A stretch of 64,000 bases of DNA from Octopus vulgaris (taxonomy: Eukaryota): assembly GCA_951406725.2 (NCBI GenBank), contig OX597818.1, positions 79,918,001 through 79,982,000 of the forward strand, given 5' to 3'. Of the stretch, positions 2,074-61,440 are shown one piece after another. Each line of letters opens with the position of its first letter. Position 1 is the stretch's first letter. Below the pieces are notes generated by a model that was given only the letters and a program-made list of their open reading frames with translations, did no database searches and had not been told where the DNA came from. The position numbers and the translations under genes were made by a program.

Positions 2074-3360
2074 CAAGATGTTCAAAACGTCTCTCTGCAG
2101 TGAATGTTTTTCATCCTGCGCATGCGTAACTTGGCTATCCCTGTGTTGGTGGCTGTGTGTTAGCCATTGTCCCTCAGTCATTGTGTACCATTCAGCGTGT
2201 CCACATGCTAACCATTGTAGATCGTACATTTTTAGTTGAATGGGTGTTTCGAGCTGGAAACAAATACACAGATACCGTGAAACAGAAGGTCAGTGGAACT
2301 TTTTCAAATACAATTGTTCCACATCGTGACACTGCGCGGGATTTGAAAAGAAAATTTGGAAACACAGGCTCAGTGGAAGACGCAGCAAGAAGCTGTAGGC
2401 CTACTGCCCTTTCAGATGAAACACTTCCCAATATTTCTGATAAACTGTTGGCAAGCCTGTCAAAGTCCTCATACAAATTGTCACAGGAAACGGAAATCAA
2501 CCTAGGAAGTGCTCACATGGCAGCAAAACAGAAATTAAATTTCTTTCCCTACAAAAGAATTGAAGACTACGGATCATGCTAAAAGGCTTCATTATTGTCA
2601 TTGGTTCCAAAACTTTGTTGCTGAAAAAGGCATAGAAGTGCTGGACGGGTGTTTTTACACCGATGGGGCTTTGTTTCATCTGTCGGGACACATAAATGCG
2701 CAAAACACAAAGTTATGCAGCACTGAGAATCCACACGCGACGCATGAGCAACCTCTGCATTTCGAAAAAGTTGAAGTATGGATAGCAATTTAGAGAAGCG
2801 CATTGTGGGACAGATATTTTCTGAAGACACCATCAACACCTAGAAATATTGCTCAAATATTGTCTATCCATTTGTAGTCCAACTCACTGATATTGAAATT
2901 AATAATGCATACTTTCAGCAAGTTGGAGCTACAGCACATACTTCGCGCATCACCATGCCGCTACTTCAGGAGTTTTTCGGTGAATGGATTATTTCGAAGT
3001 GACTTTGGCCACCAAGATCACCTGATTTAACACCGCCAGAGTTTTTTGTTTGGCGTGGGGGGAGGAGAAAGTAAAGGATCAGTGTACAAGAATCGCCCGA
3101 AAACCATTAATGAGCTAAAAGACGCAATCATAACCTTCCCAAGGTCCATACTGCGTCAGACTCTCCAAGATGTATTTAAAACCTTGTGTAGAAGAGTTAA
3201 CTTATATATTGAAAACGAAGGACGACACTTTCAACACCTCTTATAAAGTTTTTTTTTAATTCTTGTAAAGTCTAACATATTCTTTTGTAGTCTTTATACC
3301 ATCTTATAAATATTTTTTGCAATAAAATACTTACTACGGAGAGACTTTTTGAATACACTG
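2074..3360 (+). mobile_element. Tc1/mariner-superfamily element (DUF4817-type N-terminus, rosa/DD41D-like group), decayed
   Basis: Imperfect TIRs CAAGATGTTCAAAACGTCTCTC / GAGAGACTTTTTGAATACACTG with TA on the left. Frameshifted transposase: KFGNTGSVEDAARSCRP, FYTDGALFHLSGHINAQN, FQQVGATAH, WPPRSPDLTPPEF, EGRHFQHLL. Confidence 0.85.
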
Positions 3361-3462
3361 TGTGTGTGTGTATACAGGGAAAGAGGGGGATACACACATG
3401 TACATATACATTTAAGTAAATATGTACATATGTGTGTGTGTGCATAATTATGTATGTGTGGG

Positions 3463-3520
<58 letters not shown>

Positions 3521-3691
3521 GTATATATTTATATCTGTACGTACGTATGTATGTTAGTATGTATGTATATGAGCGTAAGTAAGTACACAGCTGGGTATCA
3601 ATACATTTTCAAAATAGAAAAATAATTTTAGAAGGTAGGGAACATAAAGCGAGACATATGTTACATTGTATTTCCTTGTGAATTACATACA

Positions 3692-3777
<86 letters not shown>

Positions 3778-3866
3778 CATTCATACAGATATATATTCAC
3801 AGGTATAAATGTGTGTATACATAATGAATACATATATACACACTCACACGTGTGTGTGTATATGAA

Positions 3867-3907
<41 letters not shown>

Positions 3908-4046
3908 TTATGTATATATATATTCATAAATATATATATAGTAAAGAAAAGAGTATATATACACATATACATATATATGAATATATAGATATAGATATAC
4001 ATGTATTATATGTCTACACTATATACACACATTCATATATATATAT

Positions 4047-4089
<43 letters not shown>

Positions 4090-4669
4090 TATATATACGC
4101 ATATACTTGTATGTTTGTATGTGTATATATATATATATAGACAGACATATATATATATTCATATCTATATATATATATGTATGTATATATCTTTATACAT
4201 GCATGTTTGTGTGTACGGGTGTTTGTGCGCGTATGTGTACATACACATACATATGTCTGTGTGTATGTATGTATATCTGCGTATGTACGTATTTACTTAA
4301 AAAAGCACGAAGAAGAACAGAATGAAAACTTTACACGGATGTTTGTGTGGGAGGATGTATATAATGTGGAGTAAGTGTCTGCGAGTGTATAAACGAATGA
4401 CGCAACAAGCTCTCGAGACAATGACATGCAGACAATAGGTGCCTCTAGTCCTGCTTCACTGCTGATGTTTTGTCTGTGTGTAGGGTTGGGCCGAGTGGGT
4501 AGGGCCTTGGCTCTAACTTAAATTCGTCTGTTTACGCTCAGCATTCCATTAAACACCATAGGGGTGAGTAAATACTATCTTTTCCCTCATCCCGCTTTCA
4601 TGTGACATTTATAAATGGTTTGTATTTGGTCGTATGTATAGCATGTTTTGATATTTTTAGGTCTGTAAA

Positions 4670-5345
4670 GGCGTCGAGCTGGCAGGATCATTAGCACGGC
4701 GGGTAAAATGCTTAGCGGCATTTCGTCTGTTTTAACGTTCTGAGTTCAAATTCCGCTGAAATCCATTCTGCCTTTCATTCTTTCGGGGTTGATAGAATAG
4801 GTACCAGTTCATCAGTGGAGTCGTTATAATCGATCTGCCTCATCTCCCGAAATTGCCTCCAGAAATTTGAAATCAATTTTTTTAGGTCTGTAAAGGTGAC
4901 GAGTTGGCTGAATTGTTAACACACCGGACAGAGTTCTTAATGGTTTTTCTTCTGATTCTTTAGGTTCTGAGTTCAGATTTCACTGTGGTCTACTTTACAT
5001 TTCATCCTTTCGGGGTTCATAAAATAACCACTATTTGAGCATATGCGTCGATGTAATCGACTAACCCCTACATCATATTTCAGGCATTATGCCTACATAG
5101 GAATTTGTTCCCTGCTATTTCAGGATTTCGAGTTCGTGAACTGGCAGAAACGTTATCACGTCGGACAAAATACTTAGCGGCATTTCTTCTGGCTCTTTAC
5201 GTCCTGAGTTCAAATACCATTGTCGTTAACTTTGCATTTCATCCCTTCTGGGGCCAATATAATAGATACCAGCTGAACCCTGGCATCGATATAATCGACT
5301 GGACTCCTGTTCTAAATTTCAGGTCTGGTACCTACTGTAGAAAGA
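4670..5345 (+). mobile_element. three tandem copies of SINE family B
   Basis: Repeated GAGCTGGCAG..TTAGCAC..GAGTTCAAATTCC..GCCTTTCATCCTTTCGGGGTCGAT..TACCAG motif. Confidence 0.8.
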
Positions 5346-5899
5346 AATATGTTTAGGTCTGTACGAGTCAACGAAGAAGTCTCTACATGCTCGTTTATTT
5401 TCTGGAAATCGCAGCCAATTCTCCCTCGTGTTACATGTTACAGTCTTATATAAAAACAAGACACATAGGATCATGTAGTCCTATATGCCGTCAAAAATAC
5501 AAGATGGCCATAGCTGGAATCAGATCATAGATCTATGTCTGTTAAGGTTGAGGTTAACATGTAACTAAGTAAATGGTCTAAAGCCCACAAATTCCAGCTC
5601 CCCCTCCCCCTCCCCACCTATGTTCCACAAGTATTACTGAAAAGTTTTGCCCCACCCACTTTATTTTTGGCACCAAAATAATTCTTTCTTTCTTCACCAA
5701 GAAATTCGACAAGTTTAACAAGCTGGAAGCCATTTCGATATACTTAGATATGGCAAATTATCCACCGCTCCCCTCACACACATACACATACACCTTTTCA
5801 TTCTCACAGCCTCCGGCCGCACCCCGTTGGATGCCCCTGTTTCCCTTATGACAGACATTGGGCTAAACAACAGCTTCTATAACTAGTTTTCAGGAGGGT

Positions 5900-6579: not shown

Positions 6580-9010
<2,431 letters not shown>

Positions 9011-14269: not shown

Positions 14270-14818
<549 letters not shown>

Positions 14819-20782: not shown

Positions 20783-20833
<51 letters not shown>

Positions 20834-20840
<7 letters not shown>

Positions 20841-21583
20841 TCAATATAGGGTGGCAAAAAATTTCGTAGAATTTTTTTCCACCAGCGGCCTAGTGGGAAA
20901 AAATTAAATAGTCATAGACCATTTATAAATTCAACATCAAAATCAAGGAACGGCCATAATAGGCCATTCACCCACTAGAAATAACAGCTAAAGCTTCAAC
21001 CGCAAAACAACATTAATTCCGCAAACCAGGAGAAAATTAAAAAAACATTTACCCTGTAGTTCCTTATACGATGCACCGTTTCATCTATTGATTTTGATGT
21101 TGAATTTATAAATGGTCTATGACTATTTAATTTTTTCCCACTAGGCCGCTGGTGGCAAAAAAATTCTACGAAATTTTTTGCCACCCTATATTGATTAATT
21201 ATGAATTTTCTGGTTAATTCCGTAATGGAATCGGCGGCTTATATTTGCTGCCGATAAATTTGGCGCGATTGCGATGATTTGAAAATTTTAGGTCAGATAT
21301 TGCCGAGACAGTGATTGAAGTGCCTCGTGTAAATATCTGCTCCGATCTGGCTGTTCTTACTGACGAATCTATCGGCCTATGGAAGACTAGCTTGATTTAA
21401 TTTAATCAGGTTAGTTTACCATTAAACAATAGATGAAACGGTGCATCGTATAAGGAACTACAGGGTAAATGTTTTTTTAATTTTCTCCTGGTTTGCGGAA
21501 TTAATGTTGTTTTGCGGTTGAAGCTTTGGCTGTTATTTCTAGTGGGTGAATGGCCTATTATGGCCGTTCCTTGATTTTGATGA
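20834..21583 (+). mobile_element. HHR-bearing retrozyme-like / Penelope pLTR insertion: inverted leader plus 483-bp permuted monomer, in (TA)n
   Basis: A-B-A'-C-B' arrangement; TTGATTTTGATG repeated at 21088 and 21571; (TA)n on both sides. Confidence 0.75.
21353..21458 (+). ncRNA. type I hammerhead ribozyme
   Basis: Stem I GTTCTTA/TAAGGAAC, CTGACGA (21360-66), stem II ATCTAT/ATAGAT with extended hairpin, GAAA (21435-38), stem III CGG-TGCA-TCG, GTA cleavage triplet (21448-50). Confidence 0.8.
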
Positions 21584-35371: not shown

Positions 35372-36637
35372 TTAGGTAGTCAAGAACGTTCTTGTGGAAT
35401 TTTTAATTTTTCTTTTAAATGATGTATTTTCAAATTAATTTTCGTTAAATTACTTTGACTTCATATATCATTTTAAAGCCCATTTTTCGCTCTATCTAAT
35501 CGTGTTACACTTTTTCTTTGTGAATAATTAGGCCATTTTTTCTGGAACGTTGAAAACAACATGAACAAAAAGCAAATTCGCACAATGTTATTATTCCAGT
35601 TCAAGCTAGGCCGAAAAGCAGCGGAAACAACTCGCGATATCAACGATGCATTTGGCCCAGGAAGTAATAATGAACGTGCAGCACAATGGTGGTTCAAGAA
35701 ATTTCGTAGCGGTGATGAGAATCTTGAAGCTGATAAGCGTAGTGGTCGGCCATCGGATGTTGATAACGATCAACTAAGTGCCTTATTGGAAGCCAATCCA
35801 CGCACAATTGTTCGAGAGCTTGCTTCTGAATTAGACGTAACGTATACGACAATTTCCAACCACTTGAAAGAGATTGGAAAAACAAAAATAATTGAACGAC
35901 AACCAAAAAAGAAAACGCCGTTTTGAAGTGTCGTCTTCCCTTCTTTTACGCAACAAGAACGACCCGTTTCTCAACCGGATTGTGACTTGCAATGAAAAGT
36001 GGATTCTTTACGGCAACCGGCGACGCTCAGCTCAGTAGTTGGACGCCGACGAAGTTCCACAGCACTTCCCGAAGCCAGAGTTTCACCAATAGAAGGTTAT
36101 AGTGACTGTTTGGTGGTTTGTGGCCGGTCTCATCCATCACAGCTTTTTGGATCCAGGCGAAACCATTACGGCGGAGAAGTACTGTCAGCAAATGGATGAC
36201 ATGCATAATAAACTCCGACAACAACAGCCAGCATTGGTCAATAGAAAAAGACCAATTCTTCTCCACGATAACATTCGGCCGCACGTCGCACAACTGACCC
36301 TGCAGACGTTGAACGAATTGGGCTACGAAGCTCTGCCTCATTCGCCATACTCACCAGACCTCTCACCTACCGACTACCACTTTTTCAAGCATCTCGACAA
36401 CTTCTTGCGTGAGAAATGCTTCAAAAACCAAGACGATGCCAAACACGCCTTCAACGACTCAATCGCCACCAGAACGGAGGATTTTTACGCTACTGGCGTA
36501 AATAAACTTGTTTAGTGTTGGCAAAAGTGTGTTGGTTCTGATGGTGTTTATTTCGATTAATAAAGTTTTGCATGAGCCTAGACATTTGCATCTGAATTTA
36601 AAGGTTAACAACCGCAAGAACTTTCTTGATAACCTAA
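35372..36637 (+). mobile_element. mariner (cecropia subfamily, Hsmar1-like), full length, decayed
   Basis: TIRs TTAGGTAGTCAAGAACGTTCTTGTGG / CCGCAAGAACTTTCTTGATAACCTAA with TA on both sides. Confidence 0.93.
35561..36560 (+). pseudogene. mariner transposase pseudogene
   Basis: KKQIR..FKLGRKAAETTRDIN, TCNEKW, LLHDNIRPH, YSPDLSPTDYHFFKHLDNFL, YFD*; WVPHEL linker deleted; several stops. Confidence 0.92.
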
Positions 36638-44865: not shown

Positions 44866-45482
44866 CTAGAGAGGCAGGTGGTGCATTAAAAGCAGCAACG
44901 ATCGACAATCAGTAGAGCCCGTGATATTTCTCATGATTTGGGACAAGCATAGCTTTAAACTTATAGTTATATAAGTAAATTTCGAATATTTATTATGCAA
45001 TAATGGCATTACTTACGCTTTTTCCTAATGAAACAGCTGGTGAAAGTGATTAGATTGTAAAACATCTGTGAAATGTATGCCTTTCTGTTTTTTATTCTAA
45101 ATAAGCTTAGAAACCACACTCGGTGTGGACTTTTTAGCTAGCTCCTGCAGAGGGCTAGTTGAGCCTGCGGCCCAAAACTACACTGAGCTAAATAGCATGA
45201 CAATAATATGTCTATAATGACTATATGCCTGGCGGTGTTTGATCAGAGGTTAAGGGCGGATAAGAATTAATTCTGTAGTGCAATTATTCTATTTTTCCAG
45301 AAAAAGCAACCCAAATGCTTTTATATCAGATCCCAATGCTGGATGTTAAATAACCAAATGAGGGGGCAAATTTTCAATCCCGGGATCATCCTGATTCCAA
45401 AAAGATATAATGTGTCTATGTAGAGCAAATGTAGATTGTGATACAGGGGTCCCAGACGGACCCCTGTAGAATTTCTCTTTTA

Positions 45483-46150
45483 TTATTAAAGATATAAAGT
45501 ATAAAAGCCATCTCAATATGGCTAACCACAAAGTGGGGGTGTTACTGTAGCTTTTTAGCCCCAGGAGATCATCGTTTCCAGCTGGTTTTAGACACACTTT
45601 CTGTGCCCTTGAAGTATTTGCAAAGGGAGGCCATCCCTTCCTCGCAAGATGATCTCCTGGGGCTAAAAAGCTACAGTAACACCCCCACTTTGTGGTTAGC
45701 CATTTTGAGATGGCTTTTATACTTTACATTGTCGAGCTGTTACTGTTTACATCTCGCTCTGAGATTTAATAATGCTTACAGTCAGTTTTTCGAAATCAGT
45801 GGCAGGCGTCACTAGAAAAACTCTTATATATTTGCAAAGCAGGCCTTGTCTTTCATCGTGACCTGGTGGTTACCGCCCGTTGATAAGAGACAATAATCTC
45901 GAAACCTTTCCGTGCGTATCACTCAGGCTTGCGAGGAAGGGATGGCCTCCCTTTGCAAATACTTCAAGGGCACAGAAAGTGTGTCTAAAGCCAGCTGGAG
46001 ACGATGATCCCCTGGGGCTAAAAAGCTACAGTAACCCCTACCCCCCACTTTGTGATTAGCCATATTGAGATGGCTTTTATACTTTACATTGTTGAGTGGT
46101 TACTGTTTACATCTCGCTCTGAGATTTAATAATACTTATTAAAGATATAA
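45483..46150 (+). mobile_element. retrozyme-like / PLE pLTR insertion: inverted leader plus about 1.4 copies of a 355-bp unit, 15-bp TSD
   Basis: Direct repeats start at 45648 and 46003; 45495-45647 is the reverse complement of 45929-46086; TTATTAAAGATATAA at 45483-97 and 46136-50. Confidence 0.75.
45874..45916 (+). ncRNA. degenerate minimal type I hammerhead motif
   Basis: CGCCCG TTGATAA GAGA caataa TCTC GAAAC CTTTC CGTGCG; stems I and II recognisable, core mutated. Confidence 0.5.
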
Positions 46151-46244
46151 GTTGGTCTAAAGTAGTGCTTTTTGTGTGTTTCGTACATCATCACTTTTTT
46201 AATGTATATTTATATATACATGCATGTGTGTGTATGTGTGTGTG

Positions 46245-47554: not shown

Positions 47555-49692
47555 AGCCAAACTGTGATGTCAGAGGTGTGAGAGCATTGGAGGAACCTAG
47601 TTTCAATGTGGCTAGATTACAAGAAAGACTTTGACTCTGTTCCCCACTCATGGATGCTAGAAGCCCTTCAACATGCTAACGTTCCAGTAAGAATAGTCAA
47701 AGCCATAGCTGACCTGACTTCATCGTGGGCCAACATCTTGAAATTAAACACAAAGAGTGACTGTATTATCACCGATAGAATACAATATCGCAAAGGCATA
47801 TTCCAAGGAGACAGCCTAACTGTGATGTTGTTTACACTTTCTGTAAACCGCTTGTCATTCATCTTAAGGAACTCTGAAGGATATCTCACTGGTTCACAAG
47901 GAAACAAAAATGCCAAAATTACATACTGTCTCTTTGTGCGTGATTTAAAACTGAATGCAAAGAATATGCACGAGATGACCTAGTTACAACATTCTCAAAG
48001 GATGCAGGGTTGGAGTTTGGTCAGAATAAATGTTGTTATATGATTGTGAAAAGGAGGAAGAGCATAAACCAGACTAGTAACATCTCCATCAATGCTTTGA
48101 CTGTTTCCCCTGTATCTGACGAGGAATGTTGCAGGTATCTAGGGGAGGATGAAAATATATTTTACAATGGTACCTGTAACAAAACACGTGTCACTAAAGA
48201 ATATTACAGCCGAATAAAGAAATTTGGACTTCAGAACTCTCTGCATTCAATAAAACAGTGGCTCACAATGTATTTGCAGTGCCAGTACTCATACCAACAT
48301 TTGGGCTGCTTGATTGAACGTTTGATGAGATCGAAGCCATTGATGTGAAATCCTGAAAAATACTAACAAGCCCACATAATTTCCACATAAACAGTGACAT
48401 AGACCATCTCTACCTTAAACGTAAAAAAGGCGGCAGAGACTTAACATCGATCCAAAATGCCTTTGAATGTCGCATCATATTCCGTCGGCAACGTCTTTTA
48501 ACCACCACCAAGTTTGCATACATGATGCTGATAACATCATAAGACTTGGAAGGCAACCGCTTGAGCAACAATCTGTCTGATAACCTAGAATACATGCCCA
48601 AAGAAGTTACACGGCTCTACCATAACGTATCATCAGATAAAAGGGTGAGCCTATATAATCAGAGGACTATGCATGGATATGTTAGTAGAAAGCTCAGTGA
48701 TGATACTAACATCGATCATCAAAGCAATTTATCATGGACGAATAGTCGGATTACTACCTCCCACTTTGAAGGGTATGCATTTGCAATCCAGAAACAGGAA
48801 ATATCAACCAAGTACCTGATGCACAAAAGCCGTAAAATGTGACAACCGATGCGGACTTTGTGGAGTTCACACTGAAGATATCAACCACATCATAAGCAGT
48901 TGTCCGAAAATGTCATCACGGTATTATCTACCAATGAGACATGACGTTGTAGTTAGGACACTCCATAGTAAAATCCGTACGAAGGATAATCCCGAGGACA
49001 AAGAAATAAAAACCCATTATATGGTAAAAGCCATAGCCACTCATAATGAAAAGGAATACTGGTGGAATGTACCAGTGAAGACCTCAATAAAATGTAAGCA
49101 CAACAGACCTGATATAATGATTTGAGATAGAGAAGGAAAGCTGTGCACAGTTGTGGAAATTAGCTGCCCAGCGGATGTTAACATAAAGCTGAAGATCAGT
49201 GAAAAAGAGAACAGCTGTGCTGAACTATTGAGAAATCTGCAATTATTCTATCCAGGTTACAAATTCTTGTTTATATTTGTAATTATTGGAGTCCTGGGAT
49301 ATGTAACACACTGCCTAAATACAAGTCTTGAGAAATTAGGTTTCTCAAAGCCAGAAAGGAAAAAGCTAATTCGAAGACTACAGATCCAGTCCATCACTGG
49401 AACTGTAAAAATCTGTAAAACTTCCCAGTTTATCATTTAAATACATATGAGCATGTCAAGATATGTAACTATATTAATGAGAATACATACATAAAACATA
49501 CATACATGCATACATACATACATACATACATACATACATACATACATACATACATACATACATACATACATACATACATACATACATACCCTGGTGTTGA
49601 TTTTGAAATTCAATGAAGGAACCTTGGATCTACGTTAGAAACCGGTTCTTTCTCTATTGGCAAGAAATCTTGAAATAAACTGAATAATGACA
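47555..49692 (+). mobile_element. 5'-truncated R4/Dong-type RLE non-LTR retrotransposon, decayed
   Basis: RT motifs WLDYKKDFDSVPHSW, GIFQGDSL, LFVRDLKL; CCHC CRLCG..HIISSCP; RHD; RPDIMI..EISCP; 3' UTR contains (TACA)n. Confidence 0.9.
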
Positions 49693-60655: not shown

Positions 60656-61055
60656 ATATCAATACCTCCAGATCAAAGCTATATTCACCAAATATGAATG
60701 GAGAATCAACTTCAGTCACACCTGATCGTTTTTCTGTCAAAGTCTGAGTTTCAGAATTGATGATTTAGTATTTAATTTGGAAAAGTTACTTAGAAAAGTT
60801 TTATACGCTGATTTCCAAAACTCAATAAAATAAAGCTACATATGATTACTACTGGATATAAATGTTAAGAACTTCCTAATAAGTAAGAAGCGAAGAAAAT
60901 GAAATATATGAATTTGATGCACATTTTCTTTATTCCTTAATTTCAAATTCAAACATCTAATTCCGCCAAAAGGGATAATTATTGCCCTTGTATTAACCGT
61001 CCGCTAGATTAGTCGAGTTTATTTCAGATATTCTCATTTTAAAATACTACGTATT

Positions 61056-61440
61056 TTATTACCTCCGCCTTAACGATGGCGGAGGTATTGTTTCCAGTCG
61101 TGTTTGTTTGTTTGTTTGCTTTCCGTGGACAAGATATCTCAAGAACTGCCGGATGGATTCGGATGAAACTTTCAAGGATGTTTGGCCTCGCGACTAGCAC
61201 GAACTGATTAGATTTTGGGATCGATACGGTACCGGACAAGGATTCTGAATTATTTTTCCGTTTTTTTGTTGTTTTTTTTACTTAATTTTTGAGAGGAGTC
61301 GGGTTCATTATTATTATTCTCGTTTATGAGAGCAGTCGAGTTTATTTCAGATAATCTCATTTTAAAGATCATCTTCGGTTAATCTTTGAGAGGACGTTGG
61401 TGTTACCTTGGCGGATGTTTGCGCTCTCTGAGTACTCTTG
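61056..61440 (+). mobile_element. Helentron-associated non-autonomous element (HINE/DINE-1-like)
   Basis: 5' ACCTCCGCC..GGCGGAGGT hairpin, (GTTT)n, 3' CCTTGGCGGATGT, stem-loop GCGCTCTCTGAGTAC. Confidence 0.75.

Follow-up and report, generated by a model that had tools for sequence, protein, structure and literature searches.

Retrozymes and PLE insertions

The closest described systems to the insert analysed here are the non-LTR retrozymes and the Penelope-like elements (PLEs), and a PLE origin of the former has already been proposed in a preprint (bioRxiv 10.64898/2026.07.22.740005). In the portions of the literature consulted, the enzyme that moves animal retrozymes has so far been argued from shared ribozymes, co-occurrence and homology to pseudo-LTRs (pLTRs) (PMC7229834; bioRxiv 10.64898/2026.07.22.740005), and an active retrozyme is defined by the presence of two motifs (bioRxiv 10.64898/2026.07.22.740005). 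The hammerheads of dimer-cleaving retrozymes carry a 'single base pair capped by a palindromic tetraloop' (PMC7229834), and this one-pair helix III with its palindromic tetraloop is the amphibian retrozyme form, for which the excerpts describe efficient cleavage only as a dimer (PMC7229834; PMC4209133). PLE insertions are described as 5'-truncated partial tandems, often with an adjacent inverted 5'-truncated copy, a 30-40-bp tail at one end and a target duplication (TSD) of variable length, and the formation of these tandem and inverted structures is called undefined in the sections consulted (PMC8557442). A PLE protein has been shown to cleave AT-rich DNA on both strands and to extend each of them; its cDNA starts at two adjacent internal RNA sites which delimit the tail, mostly on uncleaved RNA, and in vitro the priming takes place at sites not homologous to the cut DNA (PMC11167929).

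We examined a 64-kb stretch of DNA, referred to as the window, in which the 668 bases at 45483..46150 hold one member of an abundant family of non-coding 355-base repeats that fold as a hammerhead ribozyme. With a probability of roughly 0.78, we take it for a partly decayed member of a high-copy, non-coding family of non-LTR retrozymes with a 355-nt unit, whose insertion was likely the work of a PLE endonuclease/reverse transcriptase.

Anatomy of the insert

The insert is flanked by the perfect 15-bp duplication that the initial annotation had reported, as its left copy (45483..45497) and its right copy (46136..46150, followed by low-depth flank) agreed at 15/15 positions in a repeat search of the window. 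The chance of such a match is ~8e-9 per position on the basis of composition, and the TSD of this single insertion is A/T at 14/15 positions. Next to the left copy lies an inverted, 5'-truncated leader on the minus strand (45498..45648), which was annotated as 153 bp and measured as 151 nt, or 157 counting 6 nt of microhomology inside the TSD. The leader copies unit positions 281-355 and 1-76 and thus crosses the unit junction, with 1 difference in 76 nt from copy 1 and 2 differences in 75 nt from the unit tail. It is followed on the plus strand by a full 355-nt unit (45648..46002), which overlaps the leader by 1 nt at 45648, and by a partial second unit (positions 1-128; 46003..46135). The distance between the two starts at 45648 and 46003 is the annotated 355 nt, or 360 counting a 5-nt insertion in the C-run of copy 2, and the two body copies are 90% alike across 136 columns. 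As the body of 488 nt corresponds to only 1.37 units, it contains one hammerhead and not two monomers; the proposed tandem-monomer architecture stands here as a partial tandem. In family contigs, which are too short to show arrays, the unit closes on itself. The last part of the body forms a plus-strand tail (46084..46135) of 52 nt, or 46-55 nt allowing for microhomology, which is present at the right end only and absent from the inverted leader. Homology at the inner joint is 1 nt, and the outer joints share 5/6 nt (left, where the final 6 nt of the TSD match the reverse complement of the unit) and 3 nt (right, TTA) with the duplicated target; both outer junctions sit at TTA then CA in the unit.

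The 355-nt unit is non-coding, has a GC content of 44.5% and is strongly self-paired, none of 100 shuffled sequences folding as well (z -4.4 for the linear form and -3.9 for the circle), and no plus-strand frame of at least 120 aa was found in the unit region. These properties place it within the range of non-LTR retrozyme units (150-450 bp, non-coding, GC <50%, highly self-paired), which bears out the annotated fit in size, and the 15-bp TSD, in an element of no apparent LTR/PBS/PPT layout, agrees with their TSD of >4 bp and their want of such a layout.

The element was inserted into the AT-rich end of an older, unrelated high-copy repeat (45150..45493, left boundary unmapped), and the left flank up to ~45461 belongs to this different abundant repeat. 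The loose ends of the left-repeat contigs resemble the sequence entering the left 15-mer (15/16 letters in one X6 consensus), and as these contig ends run into 15-mer-like sequence, the 15-mer is best read as target DNA. An 8-nt match between the TSD and the tail was reached by 3% of 3,119 AT-rich control 15-mers and is suggestive only. A GC hairpin (45446-45464) was observed near the AT-rich end of the left repeat, an end that may resemble a Helitron 5' terminus on the minus strand. At 45482-45497, the alignment of contigs of one subfamily (17 in run X1 and 25 in run X2) extends through the left TSD in reverse, and beyond it these contigs continue in unit-like sequence, as if a short form without the ~40 nt after +76 had paired with nearly the whole target overhang, by chance or by pairing-guided target choice.

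The hammerhead motif

The hammerhead-shaped motif annotated at 45874-45916 was confirmed as a type I hammerhead on the plus strand (45865..45923) with a conserved core, the U3-A8 covariant described below, and canonical helices. A relaxed type I descriptor, run over the two strands of the 64 kb, matched here and nowhere else, and the Rfam model Hammerhead_HH9 aligned to it at full length (45862-45932, 26.6 bits, E 2.7e-4 in an 801-nt search of 45400-46200), with a score below the Rfam gathering score of 52, which counts against the retrozyme reading. No Rfam family reached its own gathering score in the 64-kb window. Stem I forms 5/6 pairs (45874-79/45911-16), the core U3-A9 lies at 45880-86, and stem II (45887-90/45897-900) includes G10.1-C11.1; these are followed by GAAA (45901-04), loop III (45905-08) and U16.1-C17 (45909-10), with the predicted cut at 45910/45911.

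The core of the focal copy is UUGAUAA (TTGATAA in DNA), in which U3 and A8 jointly replace C3 and G8. Decay was set aside as the first reading of this core, as the two changes are a compensatory pair whose covariation is reported, in the part of PMC4209133 consulted, for ~1,300 Schistosoma PLE-related motifs. The U3-A8 pair is likely common to the whole family, and no row at 45880 or 45885 that would restore C3 or G8 was present among the 40 of 138 difference rows listed, which include weaker rows nearby. In the core predicted by the initial annotation, the GAAACCGGTC end proved to be one of two family alleles, GAAACTAGTC being commoner in three of the four sequencing runs, and the CTGATGA half is probably incorrect, the window having TTGATAA.

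Loop III of the focal copy reads CCUU and has lost the palindrome. By contig depth, the alleles at 45906-45908 were T 1,828, A 1,914 and G 1,759 of 1,984 in X1, and in X2 they were T 4,038 at 45906, A 4,063 or G 3,453 at 45907, and G 7,411 of 7,566 at 45908; the corresponding T/A/G/G depths were 343/340/202/527 of 545 in X6 and 11/11/24/35 of 35 in X9. As the alleles move together at matching depths in 4/4 runs, the family loop is either CUAG or CCGG by a phase inferred from these depths, and both are palindromic. By analogy with the amphibian form, the family ribozyme would cleave as a dimer via the palindromic loop III. An active retrozyme is defined by two motifs and the focal copy has one hammerhead, which again weighs against the preferred reading.

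Abundance and variation of the family

Contigs of four sequencing runs out of the 24 listed (X1, X2 and X6, probably DNA, and X9, guessed to be RNA) were aligned to 45150-46222 at 80% likeness. The totals, which include the left-flank repeat, were 5,741/40.6 M for X1, 5,693/35.8 M for X2, 2,690/14.2 M for X6 and 246 for X9; as the RNA status of X9 is only a guess, its 246 contigs were not used as evidence of transcription. The summed contig depth, which is not a copy number, ranged in X1 from 14,000 to 1.16 million over the element, dropped to 5,900 in the final bin, which takes in some flank, and was 74-103 in the right flank. Contig depth thus reveals a large, multi-copy repeat family in three organisms, and the ~2,700-5,700 contigs in each of X1, X2 and X6 rule out a single-copy unit made by a local replication rearrangement, the outcome against which the initial annotation had staked its reading. 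Of 39 joints and 24 filled joints, 15 and 12 respectively were listed, and none of those listed skips the insert. Exact-pattern scans of two metagenome sets gave 0 matches, and one match in viral contigs was rejected as chance, since beyond a lone 19-nt word no part of it aligns. Elsewhere in the window no further copy of the family was found.

The closed 355-nt unit is a trait of the family and not of this locus alone, as diverged contigs bridge the tail to the hammerhead (X6 record 24, 45745-45905, 18 differences) and the hammerhead to the unit start (X9 record 32, 45855-46009, 17 differences). Further head-to-head joints with other breakpoints were found among the rows listed (45527>45967, 45561>45966, 45530>45669 and 45554-57>46118), along with an opposite-strand joint of ambiguous polarity (45873>45989); these joints were called at 80% likeness, mostly from 1 contig each and some with sides of <30 nt, and call for caution, which weakens their support for the preferred reading. 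Along the unit, the X1 depth was 1.1-1.4 million at positions 1-75, 187,000 at 76-100, 106,000 at 101-125, and 14,000 at 151-175; across the hammerhead it was ~50,000-80,000, and at 301-355 it reached 0.8-1.4 million. It therefore drops after +75 (~6-fold in X1, 3.6-fold in X2) and again after +125, and decays upstream of +300. This profile fits fixed 3' starts near both outer ends together with strong 5' truncation, and the step at +76 can also come from subfamilies diverging there (loose ends at 45482 and 45495).

The same profile bears on whether the pieces are truncated pLTR fragments, derived from a PLE that is autonomous or is long but internally deleted, instead of a free-standing 355-nt retrozyme. 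Unit positions 301-75 stand at a depth at least 10-fold that of the hammerhead region, several subfamilies diverge outside them, and homology of retrozymes to pLTRs is reported for Xenopus in the part of the preprint consulted (bioRxiv 10.64898/2026.07.22.740005). We nevertheless judge this origin unlikely, as in the diverged contigs the hammerhead region follows the tail without a break, so that the unit is closed, no long plus-strand frame is present, and the motif, with its 6-bp stem I and 4-bp stem II, is a canonical retrozyme hammerhead rather than one of the minimal PLE type.

Proposed course of insertion

Under the retrozyme reading, the enzyme would nick both strands of the AT-rich target 15 bp apart. 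One nick would prime cDNA at unit position ~128, from which 488 nt would be copied across the intact cut site, and the other would prime at position ~76, from which 151 nt would be copied. The truncated 5' ends would then be joined head to head via 1 nt of homology, leaving an inverted leader, a partial tandem, a one-sided tail and a TSD. As the 488-nt cDNA crosses the intact predicted cut site, the template would have been longer than a self-cleaved linear monomer, that is, an uncleaved multimer or a circle. The sequence of the focal insert is compatible with either a circle or a mixed multimer, and a form with a long C-run, seen in further contigs of the family, is a weak hint of the latter.

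The partial tandem with its adjacent inverted 5'-truncated copy is that of the described PLE insertions, and the AT-rich target and the TSD agree with their AT-rich targets and variable TSD lengths, as judged from one insertion. The offset between the two proposed priming sites is 46-55 nt against the published 30-40, a comparison drawn from one copy and a coarse depth profile. Against the retrozyme reading, the short homology at both junctions differs from the priming without homology seen for PLEs in vitro. The pattern of inverted copy, tail and TSD supports a PLE reverse transcriptase as the likely mobilising enzyme, in line with the suggestion made earlier. Of the twin-primed reverse transcription suggested with it, the priming of both target strands is likely retained, whereas two sites ~50 nt apart with overlapping copies follow the known PLE pattern. 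The focal geometry is thus the described PLE pattern of inverted pLTR and tail, and neither a new mechanism nor twin priming of the L1 type.

L1-type twin priming by a LINE enzyme on one multimeric RNA could account for the 15-bp TSD, the head-to-head inversion and the match by which, where the leader starts, the top-strand target end is complementary to the RNA at 5/6 positions. It is very unlikely here, as the insert has no poly(A) or simple-repeat 3' tail, the cDNA starts lie ~50 nt apart in the unit with copies that overlap by 76 nt rather than abutting, and the contig depth of the family changes stepwise at these two points as well. A simple insertion in which a later local fold-back or replication template switch created the inverted leader is hardly credible, even though local inverted duplications exist in the window (14606-14729, 97%, around a TA run) and the leader differs from copy 1 at fewer of 76 nt than copy 2 does (1 vs 4), since this contrast lacks significance (Fisher p 0.37), a single TSD encloses the whole structure exactly, and joints of a similar kind are seen again in further contigs of the family as well as in an unrelated insert.

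A wider form of the retrozyme reading, which we regard as doubtful, would have a PLE enzyme copy the U3-A8 family from circular RNA over 1.37 turns. Priming would occur on each target strand, at two fixed TTA|CA sites, and pairing to the RNA (5/6 at the leader start, 8/8 inside the tail) would select the 15-nt overhang, with PLE enzymes mobilising a broad class of small structured RNAs. If true, this would make the U3-A8 family one that is invisible to CUGANGA descriptors, and, with an unrelated ribozyme-free unit 25 kb away inserted likewise, would provide many natural records of how PLE inversions form.

A companion insert and other features of the window

The two inserts of the same geometry that the initial annotation had called unrelated are indeed so. 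The companion (20833..21583, plus strand) consists of an inverted leader (20833-21093) and a 483-nt unit, as compared with 355 nt, starting at 21088 within (TA)n, and shares no match of >9 nt with the focal insert. Its leader crosses the unit junction and is 96-99% alike, and its folding z is -6.5. As both flanks are (TA)n, its TSD is unreadable. Searches of 20833-21583 found no hammerhead or other ribozyme, so that the attribution to ribozyme RNAs does not cover both inserts. As Naiad PLEs are described in the sections consulted as being without hammerheads and preferring (TA)n (PMC8557442), the companion is likely a non-autonomous Naiad-type PLE element, and supports a shared class of enzyme and not a shared ribozyme mechanism.

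A scan of 8 frames in the window found no PLE ORF with RT and GIY-YIG, which weighs against the preferred reading, and instead Tc1/mariner pieces and one generic RT fragment. These are a broken Tc1-type transposase at 6883-7968 (PF01498, PF13358), a broken mariner transposase at 35528-36515 (PF17906, PF01359) and a non-LTR RT fragment at 47582-48348 (PF00078, below cut-off). A 124-nt palindrome (14606-14729), 97% perfect and centred on a TA run in a dispersed repeat, adjoins a long (TA)n and looks like a local fold-back duplication. At 61011-61420, a 33-nt direct repeat, 323 nt apart, surrounds an element that contains a GTTT run and a short hairpin and may resemble Helentron-associated non-autonomous elements.

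Comparison with known systems

Publications already exist on non-LTR retrozymes and the PLE origin proposed for them, on the inverted geometry of PLEs and on the U3-A8 core. The inverted-copy-plus-tail signature was not found for a retrozyme in the literature searched, which included term searches of PMC7229834, bioRxiv 10.64898/2026.07.22.740005 and the review PMC11722881, with most subscription papers and Repbase/Dfam outside its scope and with preprint supplements that may list related families; the word 'inverted' is absent from the main text of PMC7229834 by term search. The focal insert is a real, somewhat decayed insertion of a non-LTR retrozyme family, new as judged without Repbase/Dfam, with an inverted structure that is likely of PLE type. 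A short abundant retrozyme with this signature provides insertion-level evidence for the link between retrozymes and PLEs, of modest value, and the family is a convenient substrate for breakpoint counts or for the existing in vitro PLE assay. As its parts are all known, it would be of interest to specialists more than a surprise.

Among the described systems, in the parts of the sources consulted, Naiad PLEs and non-autonomous Chlamys elements such as MRC1 (PMC8557442) are the closest match to the companion in geometry, the lack of a hammerhead and a (TA)n target that hides the TSD, a likeness judged by these features. The hammerheads of the Schistosoma Cercyon PLEs (PMC4209133) are minimal, with a long helix II and mostly single, unlike the focal motif, but have the same U3-A8 compensatory core, and motif pairs on opposite strands 100-700 bp apart are also noted for them. 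From the EN+ PLEs (Penelope/Poseidon and Neptune; PMC8557442, PMC11167929) the focal insert differs in having no RT/GIY-YIG ORF, a canonical rather than minimal hammerhead and a tail of ~50 nt, and it resembles them, by what these excerpts describe, in the partial tandem, the adjacent inverted 5'-truncated copy, the one-sided tail, the AT-rich target, the variable TSD and a hammerhead upstream of the RT start sites. In its U3-A8 core and its 1.37 units with an inverted leader, the focal copy is unlike the animal non-LTR retrozymes (newt/axolotl satellite-2 HHR_Amex1 and the 350-390-bp repeats of mussels; PMC7229834). With these, as far as the portion consulted describes them, it shares a 150-450-bp non-coding, self-paired unit with GC <50% and a TSD of >4 bp, and its family shares the canonical type I hammerhead, one-pair stem III, palindromic tetraloop and high copy number.
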